A stretch of 64,000 nt of DNA. It comes from a virus. The stretch's first letter is position 1, and every line of letters begins with the position of its first letter. Below, one piece after another: positions 14,478 to 62,775 of the stretch. Under the pieces are notes generated by a model. The model was not told the origin of the DNA, did no database searches, and saw nothing but the letters and a program-made list of their open reading frames with translations. The translations under genes and the position numbers were made by a program. The DNA lies in the IMG/VR virus record IMGVR_UViG_3300024999_000057, positions 38,670 to 102,669 of that record. One strand, given 5' to 3'.

Positions 14478-15990
14478 CTCCTTTAATTTCCACTGGCAGA
14501 AATCGCCAGCATCCGTCTTCTCTCGCTTCGATCCGGTGCCCCTTGTATTTATAAGGCACCATCTCAAGCATTTCAGGTTCCCACGACGATTTCCGCCGTT
14601 TCTTGCTCATCACACCCTTGGCTACGATCCAGTTCCCAACTCCATTGTGCTCAAAATAATACTTCATGTTTTTGTCGCAGATCGCACAGATCCCGGCGCC
14701 ATGTGAAGGAGCATTTGTGCCCCCACAAAGGGTGCATTTTTCCAGCCGGGTGTGTTTTCCATGCAGCCTGTATCTTCGCCAAGGGGCCTTGTCCCAGAGG
14801 ATCTTCCTACCAACACCGATCTTGGTCCCGCCTACTTTCAAGTAGAGGAATTCCAAGAGCTTGCCTTTCGCCGGCTTGATGTTGTTCAGGAGAGCGTTGT
14901 CCCTTCCCGCGAAGCTGAAAGCTACTCGGAAGAGATCCCCGTTGAACCAAACTAAAAACCCTTTGGCGTTCCCGCCTACGTGCCAGAATCGTTCTACGAT
15001 TCCCACGGTCACCCTGACCTCAACCACATGAGATTCCCCGGTTCTGGCGGTATCCTGGTCGGTCAGCGTGAGGTACTCGCAATCCGAGTGCTCCATGACC
15101 TTGACGACTTCGCCCAAAACTTCCTCTTCCCGAAATGCGAGGCCCACATAATTGGGCGTGATCTGTGTCAAGAGGTTGTTGTCTTGAAACCTGCGCAGCT
15201 TCTCTACTCGCTCGGGAAACGGGGTCGTGGGCTTGCCATTGAGGGTCAAGGCAAACTCCTTCAGATTGTCGAAGTAATCGACTGGGTGAAACACGGTCCT
15301 TCCTGAATTCAACCGCCCCGCGTACCCCGTCAGGGTAAATCGTGGAGTTCCGATGTACTGCATATCCACGGGAAGTAATGGCTTAATTCCAACTAATTTT
15401 CCTGCTTCACACTCAAATGACCTAGTTGATCTGGGCTCCTTGGAAACCACCCCCAGCCTCATGTCGGGGGCCATAACAGCGGAGATGGCGACCGGGTAGT
15501 TCAACGCGGCGAAGCTTGTCTGGAGGGCCTCAGGTGCCTTATAAATTTCGAAGGTGTTAACCACACCAAGGTCGAGCGAGGTCTGAATCTCCATGACGGG
15601 CAATCCTTTGGTAAAACTTTTTGAAACTAGCGAGAGGTAAAACTCGCGGTCGATCCTGCTGGTCTTCGCTAGAAATCGAATTAACTCTGACTCCCTCGTG
15701 CGAGTCACAGTTTTCCGGTTGAAGAACCTGACGACTTCCAGAAATCCACCGAATGATGCCTCAGAAATTTCTAGTTCCGGGACTGAGTGGTACCTGGAGT
15801 CGTCGATGGCCTTGAACCGAAAATTCAACATGCAGAACCAGCAGGCGAAAGTGAGGAGCCATTCGGATTCCTCTGGAAGCTTCAGAACCCCCTCAGCGAA
15901 TTGCCTCCGTTTTTCCTTAGGTGACCTGAGTTCAACCAAGGAATTCCTGAAGTTCAAAACTTCTTCGATGTTGGAAAGTTCGATTTTCAT
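14455..15990 (-). CDS. inactive ATP-dependent DNA ligase paralog with C-terminal Zn finger
   Basis: Colinear similarity to the ligase at 28551-29948 with KxDG and EGxxxK lost; CTLC-x12-CAIC. Confidence 0.65.
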   Translation of the reverse strand: MKIELSNIEEVLNFRNSLVELRSPKEKRRQFAEGVLKLPEESEWLLTFACWFCMLNFRFKAIDDSRYHSVPELEISEASFGGFLEVVRFFNRKTVTRTRESELIRFLAKTSRIDREFYLSLVSKSFTKGLPVMEIQTSLDLGVVNTFEIYKAPEALQTSFAALNYPVAISAVMAPDMRLGVVSKEPRSTRSFECEAGKLVGIKPLLPVDMQYIGTPRFTLTGYAGRLNSGRTVFHPVDYFDNLKEFALTLNGKPTTPFPERVEKLRRFQDNNLLTQITPNYVGLAFREEEVLGEVVKVMEHSDCEYLTLTDQDTARTGESHVVEVRVTVGIVERFWHVGGNAKGFLVWFNGDLFRVAFSFAGRDNALLNNIKPAKGKLLEFLYLKVGGTKIGVGRKILWDKAPWRRYRLHGKHTRLEKCTLCGGTNAPSHGAGICAICDKNMKYYFEHNGVGNWIVAKGVMSKKRRKSSWEPEMLEMVPYKYKGHRIEAREDGCWRFLPVEIKGDEDSEEN

Positions 15991-18221
15991 TGCTGAATTG
16001 ATGTCGTTCCGTCCTCGTGTTTAGTAGCTCTGATTATGCTCGTGTAGGTCATCGGCAGCGCCAGTTCGGAGTGAGCGATAATGGCGATGCAGCGGCCCTG
16101 CTCCTTCAGGTAGCCCAGCACCTCAAAAAGTCCAGCCTTCCCCTCTTCATCCAACGACCCGAAGATTTCATCGAGGCAAAGCACGTTGAACGAAGAGGAG
16201 CCTGTGGCTTCCAAAATTTCCAACGTAGCGAAGAGGCAGGACATCTTGACCCTCGCCTTCTCACCCTCCGACCAGTTCGCCCACTTGACCGTCTTGTGGC
16301 TGTCGGTGACCGTGAATTGGACCTCACCATCTTCATCGAGATAGAAGACGCACGCGATTCTTCCCGAGGTGATCATCTCCGAATATTTCCGGATCAGGAT
16401 GTTGAAGCTCCTCAGGAACCTGTCGATTTTCCTGACTCGGTAACCCTTCGGCCCGAGGATTCCCAACCAATTCCTGATGTCCTCCAAGGTACTTTCTGCC
16501 TGAAACAACTCATTTCTGGAAGCGTCCAATCGGAGCAATAAATCCCGGTTGTTTTCCTCGACCTGACGATTAAGTTCTTTTCGGGCTCTCGATAAAGCGT
16601 TGTGGTCCTTGGCCTTGGTTACTTCAGTATCAATTTGGGAAACCTCGTTTTTTACTGAAATCAACTTAGAAACCAATTCGCCCAACTTCAAATCAATAGC
16701 CATCAAAACCAGAGGATCAACCTCAACCGCAGGACCAACTTCAGCTTTCAACCGGTTCAACTCGAACTGCCTCTGCTCGAACTGCAGGTGCTCCATCCCG
16801 ATTAATACCGCTTCCTGCAAGTTCAATTGAATCCGACGCTTGCGATCCTCGAAGCAACTCACATCAAGCTGAGCTTGATTCCCGTCGATCTTGGTATCCG
16901 GGTTGGCTTCGAGCTTTTCAAGCTCCTGAGTTTTCCTGGTGATTTCCTGCCAAGCCTTCTGGATGAGGCGGTACTTTGAGAGGGAGGACTCGCATTTTTC
17001 GATGAGAGCATTGTCGGCTTCGATCTGAGCAGAAAGCTCTTCGATCTGCCCTTCAAACTGCGTCGAGTCAACCGAATGTCCGCAGGTAGGGCAGGCACAG
17101 GACTTCGCGGAATTCTCAAGGCTCAGGCGCTCCGATCCCTTCTGACTTCGGGCAACCTGCGTCTTCGTCTTGAGGTTCTCGATCTTCCTCAGTTGCTCCT
17201 CAGCGAACTCTGCTTCAACTTCAGGAGTTTCCAATTTGGAAAGTTCTTCCCTCAATGGAAGCAGCCGCTCGATCTGAGGCTTGGCCTTTTCGTACCTAGC
17301 GAGAACCCCTTGAGCCTCTTGAAGCTTGGATTCGGTGAACCTGAGTTCTTCCTGAAGCTTAGTTGCTCTGCTTTGTGCGTCTTCCTTCGATAAAGAGGGG
17401 AGTTCGAAGGTTTTAATCTCGTCTTCTAACTCCTGAATCTTCTCTTGTGTCGCTTGGTTCGCCTCGGCTTTTTTCAATAGCTCTGTGAGATCGCTTCGAT
17501 CTCTGGAGAGTTCCAGTTGCTGAGCTTTCAAGTTATCAACTTCAACCCAAAGATTCTTCAGTCTGGATTCAAGCTCAGCAACCTCGACTTCCTCAAGTTC
17601 AGGCTGAGGATGAACCACGCCCTGCTCCATCAACTCGATCTGCTTCTGGAGCATCAGGATCTTGCCATGCTTTCCTGCGAGAGCCTTTTCCTTCTCCTTC
17701 ATCCGGTCGAATTCAGCGTCGAGTTCATCCAGGCGATTGACTCTGGAGATGAACTTTTTCCTCTCGCCATCGGAGGAGGATTCGAGGAGATTCAAGGAGC
17801 TTTTCGGGCTCTGGTAAACGAGATCCACGAAAGTTGAATAGTCGGTTTCGAGGACCTCTTCGAGGAACTTCAGGTTGTCCGGGATTCGCTTCAGGTGCCG
17901 CTTGTGCTTCGCTCCGTTGACCTCTTCGTAAATCTCGATCTCACCGGTCTTCTTCGAGTTCTTGACATACCACTCGGAAGCGCCCTTGGTGAACCAGATT
18001 TCGATCTCATAAGGCTGGCCTGTGATCTCGTTATTCACGTCGTCTACTTTGGTGCCCTTCGGGTTCTTGTTGAACAGGCCCTGGATCAGCGTCAGGAAAA
18101 GGCTCGTCTTGCTGGCGCCGTTGTTGCCGATGACCGAGTGAATTCCATTCTCGAACGTGAAGTCGAGGTACTTGTAGGCGAAGCAGTCTCGGGCCACTAC
18201 TCGGGTGAACTCGACTACCAC
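15987..18221 (-). CDS. sbcC: SbcC/Rad50/gp46-like SMC ATPase
   Basis: GNNGASKTS Walker A, coiled coil, CPTCG zinc hook, WSEGE signature, LCLDE Walker B, IIAH. Confidence 0.92.
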   Translation of the reverse strand: MVVEFTRVVARDCFAYKYLDFTFENGIHSVIGNNGASKTSLFLTLIQGLFNKNPKGTKVDDVNNEITGQPYEIEIWFTKGASEWYVKNSKKTGEIEIYEEVNGAKHKRHLKRIPDNLKFLEEVLETDYSTFVDLVYQSPKSSLNLLESSSDGERKKFISRVNRLDELDAEFDRMKEKEKALAGKHGKILMLQKQIELMEQGVVHPQPELEEVEVAELESRLKNLWVEVDNLKAQQLELSRDRSDLTELLKKAEANQATQEKIQELEDEIKTFELPSLSKEDAQSRATKLQEELRFTESKLQEAQGVLARYEKAKPQIERLLPLREELSKLETPEVEAEFAEEQLRKIENLKTKTQVARSQKGSERLSLENSAKSCACPTCGHSVDSTQFEGQIEELSAQIEADNALIEKCESSLSKYRLIQKAWQEITRKTQELEKLEANPDTKIDGNQAQLDVSCFEDRKRRIQLNLQEAVLIGMEHLQFEQRQFELNRLKAEVGPAVEVDPLVLMAIDLKLGELVSKLISVKNEVSQIDTEVTKAKDHNALSRARKELNRQVEENNRDLLLRLDASRNELFQAESTLEDIRNWLGILGPKGYRVRKIDRFLRSFNILIRKYSEMITSGRIACVFYLDEDGEVQFTVTDSHKTVKWANWSEGEKARVKMSCLFATLEILEATGSSSFNVLCLDEIFGSLDEEGKAGLFEVLGYLKEQGRCIAIIAHSELALPMTYTSIIRATKHEDGTTSIQQ

Positions 18222-18926: not shown

Positions 18927-19297
18927 ACCACCTCCCCTGAGAAGAGCAACTTCTCAACTGAATCCCAGTCCACGAAAGGACGTTCGAATTCATCAAGCCC
19001 TTTGCAAAGGGGAACCCCTAAAGCCGCGTCGTCGATGTAGAGGTGTGCGTAGATTTTGGGGCTTTGGGTCCAGCGTTTCTGCCCCGGATTCTCGTTGATG
19101 CTCCAGAGTTCAATTTCGTTTTCCTTGAACCAAGCCACAGCGTCTTCCAATTCTTTGCCACTCCGCATCGTGTAGAGGATGAGTTGGTGGCCTTCGCCAG
19201 TGAGCTTTTTAAGAACGGGCTGCGCTCCGATTTCTCTCCCAATCTTCGGGTACTCGTGCGTTACGCAGGTACCGTCGAAATCAACTGCGATTATCAA
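18923..19297 (-). CDS. HAD-superfamily phosphatase
   Basis: IAVDFDGT, LYTMR, KIYAHLYIDD. Confidence 0.88.
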   Translation of the reverse strand: MIIAVDFDGTCVTHEYPKIGREIGAQPVLKKLTGEGHQLILYTMRSGKELEDAVAWFKENEIELWSINENPGQKRWTQSPKIYAHLYIDDAALGVPLCKGLDEFERPFVDWDSVEKLLFSGEVV

Positions 19298-20292
19298 GCT
19301 GCCTCCTTGTAGACCATCATCATCCGGTCGATTTTATTTTCGTCGTACCCAAGTTCCTTCAGATAGGAAGCCAGTTCCTCGTCGAGCGAGGCGTTGATGA
19401 TTTCTTCTTGCTCTCCTGAATCCTGAACCAAAACCTGCAAAGCCTCAGGCACCTTCACCAACTTGACGTTGGATTGAGGCGCTGAAATGGTCTTCAACTC
19501 AGGCACGGTGCCGGTGACCTCGATCCGGTAGAAGTCGGTTTCGTTTAAAGCAGGAAATTCCTCATCCGCTCGAATTCGGATCTGAATTAGTGAGGGCAAA
19601 TTTGTGGCTATTCGCTCGTACTTCGCGGTGCCCTTGTCAAGGGTCAGGAGGACAACTCCGGTATCGACCGAGGTTTGAAACTCCTTGTTGACCGGGTGGT
19701 TCGTGTAGACGAGCTTGCCTACTGAGTAGGGGGCGTGAATATCTGAACAAATAGCCAAATCGAAAGGCTCCAGCAAATGATCGACATCAATTTCCTCCTT
19801 GACGAACTGGTTGTAGTTGCATCGGAAGTGAGAGATCAAAATGTTCAGCTTGGTGCCAGTCACTGTGGGTCCAGAATAGGTGCCCAAGGAACAATGATTT
19901 ACAAAGTGCAGCGTGCAATTTTCGTCAGGCAGGTGATGAACCCAAGGCTTCGCTTGGTAATTCAGCTTGATCGTCTTGTCCTTGCCCATGTCCAGGTACT
20001 GGAAAGTGTCCTTGCCTGGCCCGATCTGTTCGTGATTTCCAGAGATCAAGTAGACTTCGATACCGGCCTCACGACACATCCTGAAGAAGATAAAAGCAAG
20101 CTCTTGCTCCTCAAGCTCGGGCTCACATTTCTCCCAAAGATCCCCTGCTATGATCAACTCCGCGTGGTTGTGCAGGCAGGCCTCGATCAGGAACTCGAAG
20201 AGTTGCATGTAGCGGTCGATCTGCCAAGCGAAGGGAGCCTCTTTGCGAAGCCAAATGTGCCAATCCCCGCTGCAAAGAAATTTTCTAGCCAC
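19294..20292 (-). CDS. sbcD: SbcD/Mre11/gp47-like nuclease
   Basis: GDWH, AGDLWE, SGNHE, SDIH; GTG start with GGAGG RBS; near sbcC. Confidence 0.88.
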   Translation of the reverse strand: MARKFLCSGDWHIWLRKEAPFAWQIDRYMQLFEFLIEACLHNHAELIIAGDLWEKCEPELEEQELAFIFFRMCREAGIEVYLISGNHEQIGPGKDTFQYLDMGKDKTIKLNYQAKPWVHHLPDENCTLHFVNHCSLGTYSGPTVTGTKLNILISHFRCNYNQFVKEEIDVDHLLEPFDLAICSDIHAPYSVGKLVYTNHPVNKEFQTSVDTGVVLLTLDKGTAKYERIATNLPSLIQIRIRADEEFPALNETDFYRIEVTGTVPELKTISAPQSNVKLVKVPEALQVLVQDSGEQEEIINASLDEELASYLKELGYDENKIDRMMMVYKEAA

Positions 20293-20695
20293 CCGACCTC
20301 CCCACTCCCATCGCACATTTTTTGAACTCCATTTCCTGCAACGGCTTCAACGTGGGATCACAAGGAAGGCTGGTAAGCCCGAAGCAGTTCAGCCTCACGT
20401 CGGTTTCGACCCAGACTTCATCTACGAGGCCTCCACGCATAACCTGATAACCAGGAACCACAAATCCTTCCGCCTTCTCCAAAAGCCCAACAAGAAGCTC
20501 GCCTTCGATGATCAGCTTGTTGTCCAAGACCTTCGCTGAGTCCACGAAGCCAACCTTGACGTGCTGGTTGAAACCATCAAGAATCGGAATCTCCTTCCCT
20601 TGTACGGCCTCAGCCATCTGGTAGAGAGCTTCAGGCGCAAACCTGTCTCCTTTGAGATCTACTGCGGTTGATGCTGCTTCTGCGATGAATCTCAT
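20285..20695 (-). CDS. degenerate HK97-type prohead-protease-like protein
   Basis: AASTAVDLKGDRFAPEAL...IPILDGF...KVGFV...LIIEGEL...VPGY...FGLTSLPCDP; catalytic His and Ser positions not conserved. Confidence 0.5.
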   Translation of the reverse strand: MRFIAEAASTAVDLKGDRFAPEALYQMAEAVQGKEIPILDGFNQHVKVGFVDSAKVLDNKLIIEGELLVGLLEKAEGFVVPGYQVMRGGLVDEVWVETDVRLNCFGLTSLPCDPTLKPLQEMEFKKCAMGVGRSGG

Positions 20696-20932
20696 TTAAG
20701 CCACCTCGTCTTCCGGCAGATCCTTGTCACAGCCGAACAAGGTGTCCATCCCGTACTCCTCATTGGCTTCGCAGGCAATGTCGCCCAGGATCGAATCAAT
20801 CTCTTCGAGAGCATCGGTGTCGATCTCGTCGAAATTGCGAAGGCCACATAGCCGGTCGAGGACGTAGGCCCGAGCCTCTTTGAGCCGCTCCGGGTCGATT
20901 GCGAGATGATAAATTTTGAATTCTTCGTTCAT
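20696..20932 (-). CDS. small acidic hypothetical protein
   Basis: AAGGAG RBS, start MNEEFKIY. Confidence 0.6.
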   Translation of the reverse strand: MNEEFKIYHLAIDPERLKEARAYVLDRLCGLRNFDEIDTDALEEIDSILGDIACEANEEYGMDTLFGCDKDLPEDEVA

Positions 20933-20944
20933 TTTGGATCTCCT

Positions 20945-21248
20945 TAAATTAGGCGGCAGACTTCCACGCGGTCTGCCAGCGCTGCCTGAATAACTACCGT
21001 AGAGTACAGGCTCCTCCCCTTTCACACGCTCAGGTCACTCATGTTAGGCTTGGGTACAACTACCGTAGAGCACAGGTTTGAGCTTCAAGCTCTCAGCAGC
21101 TGAGAACCTCAGAGGCTTGCGCTCCAAATCCGGTTGTACCAGCTACCAGCCTTAGCCAAATTAGGCCATGCCCTCAATGACGTGCTACTTGTCCGCGCTG
21201 CTTGCACCTCATGTTCCGAGGGAGAGGATCGGCGGGGTGATCTCGTTC
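20945..21248 (-). ncRNA. candidate structured non-coding RNA / leader
   Basis: ~300-nt intergenic stretch with many stems and a duplicated 19-mer (20992-21010, 21058-21076). Confidence 0.5.
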
Positions 21249-21458
21249 CTACAGAAAGGCCTGCTTCATTTTCTCAGCGAGCCTGGTTGCTTCCAGACTT
21301 TCACCAAGGTGCTTCTCGCGATCATTCATCAGATCTGAAATCTTGGTTTCGATACCATCTGCGATAGCGTCGTGCTTCGAGGAATGAAGTTCGAGTTCCT
21401 TGACAGCCTTCTGGAAGGTACCCATAATTTCGTCGATGGTTTTACTTTTGAGGAACAA
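21249..21458 (-). CDS. coiled-coil hypothetical protein
   Basis: AGGAG RBS, 69 aa. Confidence 0.6.
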   Translation of the reverse strand: MFLKSKTIDEIMGTFQKAVKELELHSSKHDAIADGIETKISDLMNDREKHLGESLEATRLAEKMKQAFL

Positions 21459-23672: not shown

Positions 23673-25682
23673 CTAGAAGTTGATTTTGAGGGTGCGAGTG
23701 AAGCTACCCTTGACTCTGCAAAGTACGCTGCTGCGCTGCGTTGAGGAGAACCCGATGCCACTGAGTTGGTTCTCGGATTCCTCGACCTTCATCTTGGAAC
23801 CGACGACCTCGAAGACCTTCCGGTGCGCGTTCAATTCCTCGTTCAGGAACTCGTTGTAGAAGCCCCTGGCCTTGCCCTCGTTCACACACTGGTCGAGCAT
23901 GAAGAAGAAGTGCTTGTTGCCTACGCCGTGCCCGTCCCAGTGGTTCGGGGAGTGCATCAGGACGTTGACCTTGTGAAAGGTCTGTGTCGGGAGGCCCCAG
24001 ACGACTTTCGAGGTCTGCGAAGAAGGCAACGACTTGATGATCTCGAAGCCGTCCTTGTGGCTGTACTTGATCTGGGCGACCTCAACGTATTCGCCTGAGC
24101 GCATCGCCTTGGGGTAGACGAAGTTGTGGGTGGTTCCGCCGAACTCGATCTCCACCTCGAACCCAACGTCGCTGCTATTTCTCGACTGGTACTGGTTGAC
24201 CTGCAGCGTGTAACCGCCCTCGCGCATCCGGCGCTTGTCGGCGTAGTAGATGTTCTCAGCAGGATCGGTCCTCATCCCGTCTGCACCGTTTGCGTCCAGG
24301 TCGAGGCGCCCACCGTTCGGAGATAGCTTGCGACGATTCGAGTAGTAGATTCTCTGCCCGTTGGGCTCAACCATGTGGAAATCGAGGTCGTCGGTGTTGT
24401 TCCACGCCAGCCTGCAGCAGAGAGCCCCATCGACCTTCCCACCAGCCTTCTTGACGCGCTCCTTGATCGAGTCCGCCACATCCCCTGTGTACGACCACGA
24501 GAAGTTGTTCGGCCACTTGAACATGCCCTTGGCATCTGCTTCGATGGGTGCGATCAGGCTGACCATGTTCCCGGCGTGCTTGTTCTCAAGCAGGATCTCC
24601 AGTGACTCCACCTTCGGTAGAACATTGGAGATGAATTCTGTGATCCCGATTTCTTCAACTCGGTCGAAACTTTTCATGTTCTCGGGAACCGCACTAGCCA
24701 GTTCCTCGAAGACGTTCATCCGCTGCTTGGATTCACGGTTCGCGAACAGGATGTTGTTCACGGTGATGTCCTCGGTGACCGCGTACCTGCGTTGGAGGGC
24801 AGAGGTTAACCCGAGTTCCTCGATTGTCCTCTGTGCCTTCTCGATCATGCCTTTGGTGATCAGAGCAGTTGGGCGCTTGTAGTTGCTGGGCGCCACCTTT
24901 GCCTCGAACGAACCCACAGACGGCTCCAAGTCCTTGCCTTCGGAGAGGTCCACCAGCAAAGTCCCGATGACCGTGCCACGAATCTTGGAGACGGACTGCG
25001 GAACGCTCTTCAGCTTTGACCAGCAGAAGATGTCGTGCTGCGAAGACGGAAGCTTGGAGAATTCCTTCTTCAGCTTCAAGAAGCTCTCCACAGCGAACTT
25101 GTGCTCCTCGCCACGGTACAGCGAATTCTGAGCGATCAACTCCAGTACCGTGTCGATGGAATCCATCGATATTTCCTTGAGGCTCCTCAGGAAAACGTCC
25201 TTGGTGCTCCTGGACTCGGACAGTCTGGAGCCGATGTCGAGCCCTTTGACCACTCGGTCGGTCGGGACCTTGATGTAGAAGTGTTCCCAGGTAAGCATTT
25301 CTCCCGAATCTGCCTGCTGGAAATTTTTGTCAACCCCAGCTACGGACTCGGGGTGGAGGAAGATGTTGCTGATTTCACTGGACTTGACCAGATTGGACAG
25401 CGCATCCGCCACGACCTGATAGAAGCCACCCGGCTGCGCGTCCCAGATGCTGACCACTTTCCCGTCGATGATGGCAACTACGTCGCCAACCGCTCTGATA
25501 AAGGATCTACAGCAGGTGCAATCGTGCTCCGTGCGTTCTTTGTAGATCGGGTTAGTGCCCTCCGGGAAGCTGCTGAGGTAGGTCTCCCAGAGAAGATCCT
25601 TGGAAACCTCGGCGCGAAAAAGCTCGTGCTGCTTCATCAAATCGAACTGCTTTTGAACCGCTACCTTGAAATCGTTGAACAT
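23673..25682 (-). CDS. large conserved phage protein with a YfaP/DUF2135-like domain
   Basis: N-terminal HDCTCC; RLAWNNTDDLDFHMVEPNG...LDLDAN...PAENIYY YfaP-like motif. Confidence 0.7.
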   Translation of the reverse strand: MFNDFKVAVQKQFDLMKQHELFRAEVSKDLLWETYLSSFPEGTNPIYKERTEHDCTCCRSFIRAVGDVVAIIDGKVVSIWDAQPGGFYQVVADALSNLVKSSEISNIFLHPESVAGVDKNFQQADSGEMLTWEHFYIKVPTDRVVKGLDIGSRLSESRSTKDVFLRSLKEISMDSIDTVLELIAQNSLYRGEEHKFAVESFLKLKKEFSKLPSSQHDIFCWSKLKSVPQSVSKIRGTVIGTLLVDLSEGKDLEPSVGSFEAKVAPSNYKRPTALITKGMIEKAQRTIEELGLTSALQRRYAVTEDITVNNILFANRESKQRMNVFEELASAVPENMKSFDRVEEIGITEFISNVLPKVESLEILLENKHAGNMVSLIAPIEADAKGMFKWPNNFSWSYTGDVADSIKERVKKAGGKVDGALCCRLAWNNTDDLDFHMVEPNGQRIYYSNRRKLSPNGGRLDLDANGADGMRTDPAENIYYADKRRMREGGYTLQVNQYQSRNSSDVGFEVEIEFGGTTHNFVYPKAMRSGEYVEVAQIKYSHKDGFEIIKSLPSSQTSKVVWGLPTQTFHKVNVLMHSPNHWDGHGVGNKHFFFMLDQCVNEGKARGFYNEFLNEELNAHRKVFEVVGSKMKVEESENQLSGIGFSSTQRSSVLCRVKGSFTRTLKINF

Positions 25683-30476: not shown

Positions 30477-31022
30477 TCAGGCGCACGCTGCCTCCTGAGC
30501 CTCGGGTGAATAAGGCATGAATTTAACCTTCGCCTTTCTCACCGCCTCAGCCGCTTCTTCCACTGTGTCGAAGAGCCCGAGGTGCTTCTGCTTGTAGTCA
30601 AGCATGATGTAGGCTCGCCACTTCTTACTCTGAGTGTGTCGCGCTACTCCCTTGGCCCCACTGGTGTTGTTACGGTTGCGCCGGGTGCGGTTGTGGTTAT
30701 TCTGGGTGTGGTCGGCAATTCGCAGGTTCTCGCGGCGGTTATCCAAAGTATTTCCATTGATGCGGTCCACCAGTTCGCCTTCCTTAGCGTGCGCGAGCAG
30801 GCGGTGCATTGACAGATTTTGCTGCGGGTAATTACGAGGGGCTCTGCAGTAAGCGTAATAACCGCCTCTCCGCTTAGTCTTGTCATCTATGCACCATGAA
30901 ATATCCGAGATATTCACCGCTACAAAATCTTCCTCAGAAACAAGCGCCTCAAATTTCTGCCCGTTGAGTCGGTGGATGTGGATTGTGACCACTCCATTCT
31001 TTATTTCGTATTTATTCTTCAT
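30477..31022 (-). CDS. HNH-AP2 homing endonuclease (catalytic His replaced by Arg)
   Basis: MHRLL...VDRINGNTLDNRRENLR, SGAKGV, WRAYI, HLGLFDTVEEAA. Confidence 0.88.
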   Translation of the reverse strand: MKNKYEIKNGVVTIHIHRLNGQKFEALVSEEDFVAVNISDISWCIDDKTKRRGGYYAYCRAPRNYPQQNLSMHRLLAHAKEGELVDRINGNTLDNRRENLRIADHTQNNHNRTRRNRNNTSGAKGVARHTQSKKWRAYIMLDYKQKHLGLFDTVEEAAEAVRKAKVKFMPYSPEAQEAACA

Positions 31023-38063: not shown

Positions 38064-39467
38064 TCATGTGGCCTCCGCTTCTACTTCCTCTGTATCAACC
38101 ACTCCGGTGTCCTTTACGATGCCCTCTAAAATCTTGAAATCTAGCGTCTTGTTCTTGAAGATTTTCATGGAGCCGGTTTCGAGATTATCGACTCGGACGC
38201 ACACGCCTTCTCTGATATGGCTCTGGTCGATAGGATCTGCGATGTCCACTTTGTCAGTCAAAATTTCCACCCAATCCTTCAAGGCAACCACGTTATCCTC
38301 AGTTCGGACCAGTCGGGTTCGACACCAATCCGCCGCTTTTACCTCAGGCACATGTTTCACCCCAGCTTTCCTGCAGCGCTCCTTCACAACTCCCCAAGGC
38401 ATCTCCAGCATCCCGCCGTCTTCACCCATCAGGGCGATCCGGTAGACGTAGATCTCGCACTCGGCAGGCAAGCAGCCGTACTTGTAGGTCATGGTCTTAC
38501 CAAAGCGCTTCACGAAATCCTTACCCATCTTCAAGCAATCGACGGTGCTCATGATCGGCCTGCCTGATTCCTCGAAGCCTACGATCTCGTAGTACCAGAC
38601 CTCATTCTGCTTGAGGTGAGGCGCAAGCCGTTGGTGGCACTTCTCGCGGAAGTCCTTATCGACCTCATTGACTTCGCCTCGGACCTCGCCCTTGATCACC
38701 CTCCGCGTGCCGTAGACCGACTTCCAGATTTCGTAGGAAGGCCTTTCACGAAGTTGCTCCTTCTTCAGGTCCGACAGGAAGAAGTTGAAGAGGTGCTTCT
38801 CGGGACCGAAGAATGCGTCAGCGAATGCGAAGTAAAGTTCCTCACGCCATTTCAGCGGGCGCTCTTCTTTGACCCTCAGCTTCGAACTTCTGCCCGAGGT
38901 GCCGTGTAATTTAGCCGTCAGCGTCACCAGGCCCATCAACTCGTCAGGCCTTGCGTGCCTGAGTTGGTCGGTTTCGAGGTGCTCAGGGAACATCCTCTTC
39001 AATGACTCGTTCAGCTTGGGTGTTTTCGGCTTGTTTGCTGCGGCTGCTCTCTTGGTAGCCTCGGTCACGAACTTGTTGCAGATCGAGATTCCACCCAGTT
39101 CTACGAACTTGGTCCCGACTTCCAGCTTCTTCAGGTCGTAACCCGTGAAGGCCAGTGAGTGCAGCCCGATCACGAAAGCCTCCGACTTCTCGCCACGAAA
39201 CTTCTGAGCACGGACCCTGCGACTCGCATCGAAGTAGCCGCCTTTCCTCTCTCCGGTCTCTGGGTCCGTGTAGCCAACCAAATCGTTGGCCTTAGCGAAC
39301 ACCTCGGAGATCTGCCCGTCATCCGGGAACAGCACCACGACTTCGCCTTCCTTGGCCTCAAGGCCTACGATCACCTGGTAGCCGAGGCACGTAGCCACGT
39401 TCAGGCGATCAGCGTTCGAGTGCTTCCTCACATTTTCCAACTTCGAAATTACTGCGGTATAAGCCAT
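38064..39467 (-). CDS. RNA ligase, DRB0094/Rnl5-like
   Basis: N-terminal HSNADRL OB domain; TAKLHGTS motif I, YYEIVG, REGVCVR, FKNK. Confidence 0.85.
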   Translation of the reverse strand: MAYTAVISKLENVRKHSNADRLNVATCLGYQVIVGLEAKEGEVVVLFPDDGQISEVFAKANDLVGYTDPETGERKGGYFDASRRVRAQKFRGEKSEAFVIGLHSLAFTGYDLKKLEVGTKFVELGGISICNKFVTEATKRAAAANKPKTPKLNESLKRMFPEHLETDQLRHARPDELMGLVTLTAKLHGTSGRSSKLRVKEERPLKWREELYFAFADAFFGPEKHLFNFFLSDLKKEQLRERPSYEIWKSVYGTRRVIKGEVRGEVNEVDKDFREKCHQRLAPHLKQNEVWYYEIVGFEESGRPIMSTVDCLKMGKDFVKRFGKTMTYKYGCLPAECEIYVYRIALMGEDGGMLEMPWGVVKERCRKAGVKHVPEVKAADWCRTRLVRTEDNVVALKDWVEILTDKVDIADPIDQSHIREGVCVRVDNLETGSMKIFKNKTLDFKILEGIVKDTGVVDTEEVEAEAT

Positions 39468-49094: not shown

Positions 49095-51107
49095 TTATTC
49101 CGCCGCTTTAATATTCAGCAGCGGCCTGATGTGGTCGATCACACTCACGGTGACTCCCTCCTGCTTTGCCAGCACGTAATTGATGTCCTTGTAGGCGGCG
49201 GGCGCCTCATCCAGGATTGAGCGGTTGGTGGAGCAGATGATGCCTTGCATCCCGTCCTTGAACTCCTGATAATCCAGCGTCTTCTTCGCTTGGTTCCTTC
49301 CCATGACCCTACCGCAGCCGTGAGATGCCGAGGAGAGATAATAGGACTCGCCCAAGCCTTCCGTGATGTACACGCCATCTCGCATGTTGGCTGGGATCAC
49401 ACCAAGCTGCCCCAGGTCCGCAGGAGTCGCTCCTTTGCGGTGCAGGACGCCCTCAGGAGTTACGACGGCGTGATTGTGGTTCTCGTTGATGACGCGGTTC
49501 GCTAACTGGTTAGGGTGCAGCCCTAGGCATTGTAGCACTTGGGTCATCATCCGCAGCCGATTCTCCAGTGCCCACTCCAGAGCGAAATTCATGTCCTGAA
49601 GATAAGCCTGTCCAAGCTCAGACTCCAGAGGGAACAACCGGCCCTTCTTCATGTACCAACCGCCGATTGTATGGCCTACGTTCCTGGACCCCGAGTGAAT
49701 CGTGACGCAGAGGTTGCCCTTCTGGTTCTCGCCAAGCTCTATGAAATGATTTCCGCCACCTAGCGTTCCGAGTTGGGTGCCAACTTTAGCCTGGACTCGC
49801 TGGTGCGTGTTAACATCCATCACGTCTGAAAACAGCACCCAATCGTAGCCTTGGTCCTTTGTATGTGAGGAGAACCCCGTAGGAATCACCTTCAGGATGT
49901 CGTTGTAGATGCCTCGGAGGGTAGTCACGCTCGCAGCCTTGATGCCTGTGTCTAACGAGCACATTCCACAGTTTCCAGTGATAAAAATCTTGTTGTTGCG
50001 CCTAGCTACGAAATATCCCGAAGGAACCGTGAAGCAATATTCTTTACCGTCTTGAGACGACACGAAGTTAATCGCCTCGTTTTTGGTTAGTCCCACATAC
50101 TCGTTTTTGGTTTTGTAAACCCACCAAGTTGAGTTCCAATCTTTCCCCTCGTAAGAGTGGCAGTGTATGCCAGTTCTGGCCCCCGCCACCGTAAAGGCAT
50201 ACTGAATTAAATCCGCATTTTGCTTGCAAGTAGCGGAAAAAGCTTCGTGCTCACCCACTGTACCATCCCAATGCAAACATTCTTCTGCAATAATTCTGAG
50301 TTGCGCTTCGCTACTTGCCCAGAAAATAGACAGGTCCTTAGTGACTCGATAGTCCCTGAAGTATATGTAGGTGCTGCCATCCACACCTACGGTTAACTCG
50401 TAATTTATTCCCGCCTGGTTAAGCAGTTCCTGGGCTCTAATTATTTTCCTCTCTTTTCTGAAGTGTAGTTCAGTGGTGCCTTGCTTTCTTATGTGCCCAT
50501 CCGCACTCACCATGACAATTACCCTGAGGATAGCATCAGTCATATCCAAATCAGGATTACTTAATTTGAACGTGGTTTTTATTCCGCCTTGTAGTCCTTT
50601 ACCTAGAGACCTGTGCTTTTCCACTAGTTCTTTAGTTGCATACACTTTGGGCTTATACCCCCGCGACTTGTATCCATGCCAGAACAGCACCTTGTGACCC
50701 GAAGACAGCATTTGATCCATGCCATCCTTGTGCCACAGATGGTAGAAGCCCTCTGATGGTTGCACCACATAACGCTGGGGTACTACAAACGATGCTTCAT
50801 CGGTAGTCGGGTTGTACTGAAGTACCTCGCCACCCCCGTATTCTGAAATTTTAACCCAACCACTAGGAGACAAAAACTCAGTGTCCTTATCAAGGCACCC
50901 GATATCGTATCCGACGAAAGAAGGAGAGATCATCCCCTCTAAAAGAGCGACTCCTCCAATCGGCAGGTCGTAACCTGCATGGACATCCGGCATGATCGCC
51001 AGCTTCTTCAGGCAATCCAATTCCAGTACATCAAAAATCTGCTGCTGAGCAGACTGCTCAATTTCCTCCAGTGGAACCGTCGAGAACAACCTGTTGAGCT
51101 TGCTCAT
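49095..51107 (-). CDS. rtcB: RtcB RNA ligase interrupted by an intein
   Basis: MPDVHAGY, GYDIG|CG, GTLGGGNHFIE, HSGSR, NHNH, HRKGA, SHGCGR, DEAPAAYK. Confidence 0.95.
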   Translation of the reverse strand: MSKLNRLFSTVPLEEIEQSAQQQIFDVLELDCLKKLAIMPDVHAGYDLPIGGVALLEGMISPSFVGYDIGCLDKDTEFLSPSGWVKISEYGGGEVLQYNPTTDEASFVVPQRYVVQPSEGFYHLWHKDGMDQMLSSGHKVLFWHGYKSRGYKPKVYATKELVEKHRSLGKGLQGGIKTTFKLSNPDLDMTDAILRVIVMVSADGHIRKQGTTELHFRKERKIIRAQELLNQAGINYELTVGVDGSTYIYFRDYRVTKDLSIFWASSEAQLRIIAEECLHWDGTVGEHEAFSATCKQNADLIQYAFTVAGARTGIHCHSYEGKDWNSTWWVYKTKNEYVGLTKNEAINFVSSQDGKEYCFTVPSGYFVARRNNKIFITGNCGMCSLDTGIKAASVTTLRGIYNDILKVIPTGFSSHTKDQGYDWVLFSDVMDVNTHQRVQAKVGTQLGTLGGGNHFIELGENQKGNLCVTIHSGSRNVGHTIGGWYMKKGRLFPLESELGQAYLQDMNFALEWALENRLRMMTQVLQCLGLHPNQLANRVINENHNHAVVTPEGVLHRKGATPADLGQLGVIPANMRDGVYITEGLGESYYLSSASHGCGRVMGRNQAKKTLDYQEFKDGMQGIICSTNRSILDEAPAAYKDINYVLAKQEGVTVSVIDHIRPLLNIKAAE
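49971..50897 (-). mobile_element. 309-aa intein with LAGLIDADG homing endonuclease
   Basis: Starts CLDKDTEFLSPSGW, ends YCFTVPSGYFVARRNNKIFITGN before extein Cys; SADG and HWDG blocks. Confidence 0.92.
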
Positions 51108-61394: not shown

Positions 61395-62433
61395 TCATAC
61401 CTTCCAAACTTGGATGGTAAATTGCTTGTCCTCCGGGAACCTCTGCTTCATTTTTTGAACTGCCTCTTCCTCTGAAGCAGCGTCGATGTAGTAGCCTTGT
61501 CTTGCTGAGGGATCTTTGTGTCCGGGGCATCCGGGATCGTAGCAATCGGGACGTGTTAGGCGGAATTGAGTCATTTTATTTCCTCCTTTTAAATGTCGAG
61601 AAATCCAGGGCCATTCCCTTCTTCGTCCTGGAGTATCCATGCGGTGGTGCCGTCGTCGAACACGAGGGCGTAGAAAACATCCCCTCCAAAGTCATCAGCT
61701 CCGTCGTCCTTAACAATCCGGACAACCCGCTTGCCCATGAGTTGACCGTAGTGTCTCATGTAAGGGTCCGAGGCCAACAAAGCAGCCTCCATCGGGTCTC
61801 CTACTTCAGGGAAGGATTGATTAACGCGGCCAATAAATTCCTTCATTGCCTCGGCCTCTTCATCGGTGAAAATCCGCTCGCCGGTCTTGATGTCCACTAC
61901 ATCGAACGGATCGTCCTCGAAGTGGTACATCTTGCCCAAGTCCTGCAACTCTTCGCAGAAGCTGTAGAAGGTCTTTTTGATGAGCGGGTTGCAGCGGTTG
62001 ATTGCTTCGATTACTTTGGACATTTTATTTCCTCCTTAAATGTGAGATTTCACTTTTTGGTTCGCTCAGTCAATTCATCGACCACCAGAATATTTGCGAA
62101 GTAATCCCCTTCATTCCCTGCGGATGAATACTTTTCCTCCACGAAATCGTCCTCTTCAAATCCCTGCTCCAGAGCGTCCCTCCTGAGTTCCTCGATGTAC
62201 TCCGGATCTGCGAAGTAGCCTTTGTAGCCCTTGTCTTTGCAGTAGTCGGCTATGGCGTCATGACAGGCGCTGAGATCTGAGCTCCCGTGAATCAGGAATC
62301 CAGCCGAGACATAGCAGCCGGTATCAAGCCAGATGATGTAGGTATTGGGCCAGAAATGCTTGTCCTCGGGATTTACGTAGTCGATGGCTCTACGGTAGTC
62401 TTTTAATCTGGTGGCGAAGTCTTTGCGGTTCAT
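61395..62433 (-). CDS. three accessory genes (61395-61574, 61589-62023, 62050-62433)
   Basis: Each has a strong RBS and junction motifs. Confidence 0.6.
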
Positions 62434-62775
62434 AATGCCTCCCCTTAAAAAATGTGAAATCTCACTTTTCCTACCTAAACATCCAGCTACACAAAACCAA
62501 CCCGCTAATCACAACCATCAAAACCAGGATCTGTCCAATGATAGTTTCTTCGTCTCTTTTGGCTGCGAGTTCGGCACGTTGTTTTAAAACGGTGTGAGAA
62601 ACGTAGTTCACGAAACCACCTCCACTCTCTCGCTACGAAGATCGACCCAAGCCAATCCATCGTTAAACTGCACCAAAACCATATCCGCCAATTCTTCAAG
62701 GCAGGTTCCACATCCGGTTCCTGCGACGAAAACTTGTTTATTTTTCATTTTTAGTTCTCCTTTAAATGTGAGAAT

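Follow-up and report, generated by a model that had tools for sequence, protein, structure and literature searches.

We propose that positions 20955–21241 on the minus strand of the window, the 64,000-nt stretch of phage DNA analysed here, form a structured non-coding RNA that is transcribed with the replication/recombination operon in which it lies, and we put the probability of this reading at about 55%. The comparison of related phages reveals a strongly constrained, single-copy non-coding element with a variable stem-loop at a fixed insertion point and, in relatives, a tRNA gene directly downstream; it is retained behind different upstream genes and before different downstream content. That the minus strand carries a functional RNA element is probable, judging from its pattern of conservation and pairing, and the element is a plausible new, lineage-restricted phage non-coding RNA, for which the evidence is moderate.

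The window corresponds to bases 38670–102669 of a 102.7-kb linear IMG/VR virus record with an estimated completeness of 91%. All genes called around the element, from SbcC to the 669-aa ORF, are on the minus strand and thus in the same orientation as the element. In the direction of transcription, the locus reads:

23673–25682, minus strand: 669-aa ORF, widespread in large phages
21249–21458, minus strand: 69-aa ORF, phrog_2380
20933–21248, minus strand: non-coding gap between the 69-aa and 78-aa ORFs
20696–20932, minus strand: 78-aa acidic ORF, no Pfam or PHROG family
20285–20695, minus strand: 136-aa ORF
19294–20316, minus strand: SbcD-like gene
15987–18221, minus strand: SbcC-like gene

Elsewhere, the window encodes a DNA polymerase, a ligase, a primase, helicases, an RNA ligase and RtcB. 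Matches of the 669-aa ORF in isolated phages are distant (≤55%), tblastn gave no match for the 136-aa and 69-aa ORFs among isolated phages, and close DNA relatives of the locus were found neither among isolated phages nor among plasmids. ARAGORN detected no tRNA genes, either in the window or across the entire 102.7-kb genome.

Five versions of the element were compared (the window, L004, L009, L011 and L013), all from related metagenomic phages of one narrow clade. In the numbering of the window, from 5′ to 3′ of the presumed transcript, the parts are as follows:

21233–21241, minus strand: 5′ motif A-U-M-A-C-C-C-C-G, where conservation begins on the 5′ side in every version
21171–21222, minus strand: 5′ hairpin, named in the earlier note; z −2.22
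21171–21195, minus strand: block A, 25 nt, 92–100% identical in all five versions and 99–100% among the relatives
21040–21170, minus strand: variable domain V, 131 nt, containing the D-arm-like hairpin, the long stem, the compensated hairpin and the first 19-mer copy
about 21149–21166, minus strand: D-arm-like hairpin within V
21133–21140 with 21053–21060, minus strand: long stem within V
21088–21108, minus strand: 9-bp hairpin within V, with three compensatory changes between the window and L004
21058–21076, minus strand: first 19-mer copy, within V
20955–21039, minus strand: block C, 85 nt, containing the purine-rich tract, hairpin H1, a 6-nt palindrome and hairpin H2
21012–21023, minus strand: purine-rich Shine-Dalgarno-like tract in block C
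20992–21010, minus strand: second 19-mer copy, in block C, invariant in all versions
20984–21011, minus strand: hairpin H1, 5-bp stem and 18-nt loop with most of the second 19-mer copy
20971–20977 with 20955–20961, minus strand: terminal hairpin H2, 7-bp stem and 9-nt loop
20933–20954, minus strand: spacer with the ribosome-binding site (RBS) of the 78-aa ORF, the slot that holds a tRNA gene in relatives

Queries against viral contigs comprised three proteins and sequence patterns for the 19-mer, for block A and, with gaps allowed, for block C. The L004-type relative, represented by two contigs (L002–L007), came from the IMG/VR pattern and protein scans, while L009, L011 and L013 were recovered by a single metagenome scan with SbcD alignment, which also yielded L010, a phage lacking the element, and L012, a further contig of the first relative. 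Two additional viral-contig matches, L016 and L019, are chance matches, and no element was found in either of the two genome-contig scans. In a large protein collection, the 78-aa protein falls into four clusters, encoded on about 20 additional contigs.

The comparison shows a mosaic of nearly invariant and freely exchanged parts. The 5′ motif is found behind different upstream genes in the window, L004, L009, L011 and L013, and is predicted to pair with the G-run of block C in some versions only. The 5′ region exists in two unrelated types, of which type I (window, L004 and L011) has the 5′ hairpin. The 3′ strand of this hairpin is block A, and its 5′ strand is present only in these three versions; since another sequence replaces it in L009 and L013, the hairpin is not universal, and one-sided changes keep its pairs in L011 and L004. 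Domain V is homologous only between the window and L004, its place being taken by unrelated sequences in L009 (63 nt), L011 (60 nt) and L013 (43 nt). Block C is 98.8–100% identical among the four relatives (0–1 change in 85 nt) and 95–96% identical to the window. In comparison, the 78-aa gene is 87–91% and the next gene 69–86% identical at the base level, so that at the rate of the adjoining 78-aa gene approximately nine differences would be expected in 85 nt, compared with the 0–1 observed. The sole substitution in block C among the relatives is located in the H2 loop of L013. H1 has a pair probability of 0.58–0.93 in all five versions, and most pairs of H2 exceed 0.85 in four versions, with values of 0.24–0.38 in L009. 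For the remainder of block C, the purine-rich tract included, the predictions show mostly unpaired bases or pairings that vary. A gene start at 62433–62450 (minus strand) uses this purine-rich tract for ribosome binding, so that the tract of block C resembles a true ribosome-binding site, albeit one that lacks a start codon.

The element is missing from L010, as are the 69-aa ORF and the ORFs that lie ahead of it, which makes the element dispensable. The 78-aa ORF is about 90% identical among the phages that keep the element, in contrast to 42% in L010, which suggests from sequence comparison that the 78-aa gene and the RNA element move together. A role of the 78-aa protein as an RNA-binding partner was considered and set aside: the protein is acidic, belongs to no Pfam or PHROG family and has no useful Atlas match. 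At L010:980–1052, a terminator-like hairpin directly precedes the 42%-identical homologue of the 78-aa ORF.

The window and L004 differ by four 1-nt indels, and because these break the frame we consider the gap non-coding. An extension of the 78-aa ORF from a GTG start (20696–21025) was rejected, as in relatives a tRNA gene interrupts it or the frame is not kept.

The hairpins and stems described in the earlier note from a minus-strand reading of the window are all present where it placed them, and strand-specific evidence comes from the way in which their sequences change. The window and L004 differ in 34 columns, 12 of them among the 162 paired and 22 among the 126 unpaired columns of a consensus fold (7% versus 17%), although this fold was fitted to the window and L004 themselves and the pair counts lean towards it. 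Two-sided changes affect three pairs, all in the hairpin at 21088–21108 (U-A to G-C, U-A to C-G and C-G to U-A), and all six one-sided changes still allow pairing, with none broken. A smaller hairpin proposed earlier at about 21078–21092 does not survive this comparison: it is broken in L004, whereas the competing extended hairpin at 21088–21108 is kept by the compensatory changes. When the same pairs are read on the opposite strand, 20 of 162 cells are non-canonical. The G-U pairs fit the gene strand only, which points to a transcript of that strand.

A further pattern is found at the boundaries of V: in each of the five versions, its two ends are complementary and pair right at the A|V and V|C junctions (CAUG/CAUG, CAUGG/CCAUG, GCCU/AGGC and CAC/GUG). 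The first 3–5 nt pair with the last 3–5 nt, with P values of 0.006–0.044 per version against shuffles, and the junction register is the best or tied best of 81 slid registers; the boundary was, however, set after seeing the data, and four of the five versions share the first two junction pairs. Treated as one helix, the junction has four positions with double-sided changes across three sequence types. Such a pattern is what a variable stem-loop projecting from a set position in a conserved core would produce. The core itself is invariant across the five versions; its fold has no covariation support, and its predicted pairings differ between versions.

Folding energies gave a divided result. 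The earlier note had named a folding energy no better than shuffled controls as a ground for refutation. V alone (z −2.41; 2 of 200 shuffles as good) and the 5′ hairpin fold better than shuffles, but the whole element (z +0.46; 64 of 100 dinucleotide shuffles as good) and block C alone (z +0.84) do not; the antisense strand of the whole element has a z of +0.15. Replacing V with a capped stub led to core structures that were inconsistent between versions, and a candidate helix pairing block A with the beginning of block C received a low predicted probability, as did the junction helix.

The two 19-nt copies named in the earlier note are genuine: they are the sole matches in 64 kb at ≤3 mismatches, and two matches were obtained in none of 100 shuffles. 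A 13-nt match to the 19-mer at 62387–62399 lies inside a coding region and is attributed to chance. The first copy has drifted in L004 (two substitutions and one deletion) and is absent from L009, L011 and L013, and the two copies are placed in different predicted structural contexts. Because these three relatives carry unrelated middle sequences, the tandem module is not a feature of the family. The earlier suggestion of a tandem aptamer with two equivalent modules thus had to be abandoned, as the domain with the first copy is replaced by unrelated sequence in three of the five versions. The 9-bp direct repeat reported at 20946 and 21158 does exist but is at chance level, the surrounding 1 kb holding two more exact 9-bp repeats; neither copy is retained in L004. 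Also probably due to chance is a possible antisense interaction of the variable domain with the mRNA of the 136-aa gene (20 of 23 positions complementary, 20624–20646 versus 21072–21094). This complementarity is above shuffles in the window, but it is absent from all relatives, including L004 with its homologous domain, and we read it as chance because no relative shows a similar complementarity.

Comparison with known families supports the view of the earlier note that the region is a structured RNA that matches none of them, in that conservation exceeds that of the flanking genes, compensatory changes and one-strand G-U pairs are present and there is no Rfam match. The Rfam scan proposed in that note found no family: Rfam 15 gave no matches at the gathering threshold in the whole window, and at E ≤10 (window region, L004 2100–2680 and L013 2815–3045) the output was noise, the best score being 18 bits against a threshold of 36. 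The resemblance of one hairpin to a tRNA D-arm is backed neither by ARAGORN nor by a tRNA covariance model, with no ARAGORN match and no RF00005 match at E ≤10 in the element. Self-cleaving ribozymes (hammerhead, twister, pistol, hatchet and HDV-like) likewise gave no Rfam match to a class consensus, although the element may belong to a new ribozyme class. The ribozyme and protein-sponge readings of the earlier note are possible ones that received no support. As in tandem riboswitches and aptamers, a structured, leader-like region lies upstream of an ORF and the window version contains a repeated module; unlike in these, the repeat is unconserved, a tRNA intervenes, there is no evident expression platform and no Rfam match was obtained. 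In relatives, a tRNA, and in L013 a further ORF, separates the element from the downstream ORF, and for this reason the element is unlikely to be a riboswitch-type leader of that ORF.

YrlA RNAs, which carry a tRNA-like domain and are located in rsr/rtcB loci, offer another point of comparison, as the window phage encodes RtcB and an RNA ligase and the element includes the D-arm-like hairpin. It differs from the YrlA/Rsr-RtcB systems in that there is no Ro protein, the D-arm-like hairpin is part of a non-conserved domain and RtcB is encoded 28 kb away. The Ro/TROVE domain (PF05731) is absent from the genome, while control genomes were positive, and a Y-RNA acting through the phage RtcB was rejected for want of a TROVE partner and an Rfam Y-RNA match.

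What follows block C differs between the phages:

window and L011: RBS of the 78-aa ORF
L009: tRNA-Gln(TTG)
L013: tRNA-Gln(TTG) followed by an additional small ORF
L004: a further non-coding segment of about 220 nt, with tRNA-Thr(TGT) behind it

In the window, H2 ends approximately 10 nt ahead of the RBS of the ORF starting at 20932. The tRNAs in the relatives have the same orientation as the element, and in an 82.5-kb relative (73% complete) the sole tRNA found is the one directly behind block C. The tRNA of L004 is flanked by short direct repeats, one copy of which is present at this place in the window. As support for the RNA reading, the tRNA adjacency has to be weighed with care, since it may reflect only a permissive non-coding slot. 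The approximately 220-nt extra segment of L004 (L004:2438–2671) contains several clean hairpins, one of them GNRA-capped, and a twice-repeated 7-nt motif; it has a z of −1.36 and no Rfam match, and may represent a separate RNA or a continuation of the first one.

Based on these observations, we propose the following hypothetical scenario, in which (i) the element would be transcribed by read-through, as suggested by the fact that no promoter or terminator belonging to it was found; (ii) a nearly invariant core, composed of block A and the two-hairpin block C and exposing a purine-rich tract, would bear a peripheral stem-loop domain that projects from a fixed junction and is swapped wholesale between related phages; (iii) in relatives, the RNA would be cut from the polycistronic transcript together with the downstream tRNA, RNase P cleavage at the tRNA 5′ end setting the 3′ end of the element; and (iv) block C, which is invariant and pairs only weakly with itself, may let the RNA act in trans, its partner being a protein or the ribosome and not a small ligand. 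The window phage, which has neither the tRNA nor the 220-nt segment, would have retained only the core and a large variable domain. That the RNA is trans-acting and binds a protein or the ribosome is the most tentative part of this scenario and, in our view, rather doubtful.

Several explanations compete with this proposal. A DNA-level cis element, either a protein-binding site (replication origin, single-strand initiation signal or other replication/recombination site) or a recombination boundary for cassette exchange, would account for a block C that is extremely conserved yet not thermodynamically structured, for its single copy in the genome and for its position among SbcCD, ligase, helicase and polymerase genes, within a gain/loss hotspot that affects the 69-aa ORF, the tRNAs, the extra ORF and the middle domain. 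We nevertheless consider it unlikely, as the compensatory and G-U-preserving changes suit a one-strand transcript and not duplex DNA. Moreover, the locus has no AT-rich unwinding region, its sole repeat is the 19-mer pair that is missing in most relatives, no sequence resembling the element was found beside other variable spots of the genome, and the cumulative GC skew has no turning point here. A second rival is a cis-acting part of the operon mRNA instead of an independent trans-acting RNA, for example an RNase III/E processing site, stabilising hairpins or an antitermination-type signal that separates the variable upstream genes from the 78-aa, 136-aa and SbcCD genes. Such a part would require no promoter or terminator of its own, would be in line with a long irregular hairpin domain that stays a hairpin while its sequence varies, and would explain the terminal hairpin just ahead of the next RBS in the window and L011. 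A processing site, however, needs no 110 invariant bases, and in three relatives a tRNA, the excision of which would cut the transcript, splits the element from the downstream mRNA; together with the lack of a match to any Rfam cis-regulatory family, this makes a cis-acting mRNA part distinctly unlikely.

It is very unlikely that the region is decaying debris of a stable-RNA gene cluster whose conservation reflects recent recombination among close phages instead of function. Block C is identical beside unrelated middle domains while the flanking genes differ by 10–30%, and a recent sweep would have to be limited to precisely these 85 nt in every genome; no tRNA-like signal emerged at relaxed thresholds either. 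These points outweigh the observations that fit decay, namely the lack in the window of the tRNA and 220-nt segment present in L004, the drift of the first 19-mer copy in L004 and the origin of all versions from few related samples. Finally, the constraint on block C might be that of a conserved micro-ORF, an 18–22-codon frame after the Shine-Dalgarno-like tract. This tract (21012–21023) is strong and of the type used by real genes of the phage, and in each of the five versions the frame stays open over 18 codons or more. Yet there is no ATG, GTG or TTG start, only a CTG located 3 nt past the Shine-Dalgarno core, and the C-terminus is different in every arrangement. The versions show zero synonymous changes, compared with about 10% base divergence in the next gene, which speaks for selection on bases and not on codons and renders a micro-ORF far-fetched.

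If the proposed structured RNA is real, its closest counterparts are found among phage RNAs that accompany tRNA genes, the parallels being solely ones of context. GOLLD and ROOL RNAs of phages are located near tRNA islands, and GOLLD combines a conserved 3′ part with a variable 5′ part (10.1101/2024.12.08.627333). The element resembles them in being phage-encoded, without an assigned function and situated beside tRNA genes (in L004, L009 and L013, the window itself having no tRNA). In contrast to these RNAs, it matches neither Rfam model even at E ≤10, measures about 290 nt (about 520 nt with the extra L004 segment) instead of roughly 600–800 nt, shows no sign of a multi-pseudoknot architecture and is found in one small phage clade. 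In phage T4, the tRNA operon transcript also gives rise to the species I and II RNAs, small stable RNAs that are encoded with the phage tRNAs and released from the same precursor (PMC2330249). The element is similarly co-oriented with, and directly upstream of, a tRNA in relatives, the likeness consisting in adjacency and orientation; unlike T4, the window phage has no tRNA at all.

The function of structured phage RNAs beside tRNA genes, such as GOLLD, ROOL and T4 species I/II, is a long-standing puzzle. If real, the RNA described here would provide a small and tractable example, with a short invariant core, a clearly marked changeable domain and natural variants with and without a tRNA, for which binding-partner and processing experiments would be easy to design. 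Its present value is that of a lead rather than a discovery, given that it comes from few metagenomic contigs of uncultivated phage and that the structural evidence is thin. Going further, we can imagine a new class of phage RNA that heads the tRNA slot and consists of an exchangeable domain and an invariant core, about 110 nt long, in which a Shine-Dalgarno-like tract lies exposed. Such an RNA might be a small-scale equivalent of GOLLD/ROOL, or it might act as a decoy that draws off the ribosome or a host RNA-targeting defence, with specificity tuned by the swapped domain; this is speculative, and we regard it as improbable.

Two further observations concern the wider genome of the window phage. 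A 670-aa protein (49095–51107, minus strand) has a C-terminal RtcB domain, recognised by Pfam in two stretches, and an N-terminal match to a PhoH-like PHROG, and a 467-aa RNA ligase is encoded by a separate gene (38064–39467, minus strand). The two form an RNA-repair set; such sets are usually read as a counter to tRNA-cutting host defences. A 181-aa ORF (30477–31022, minus strand) adjoins the DNA polymerase gene and, with weak below-cutoff Pfam matches to HNH and AP2, may encode a homing endonuclease.
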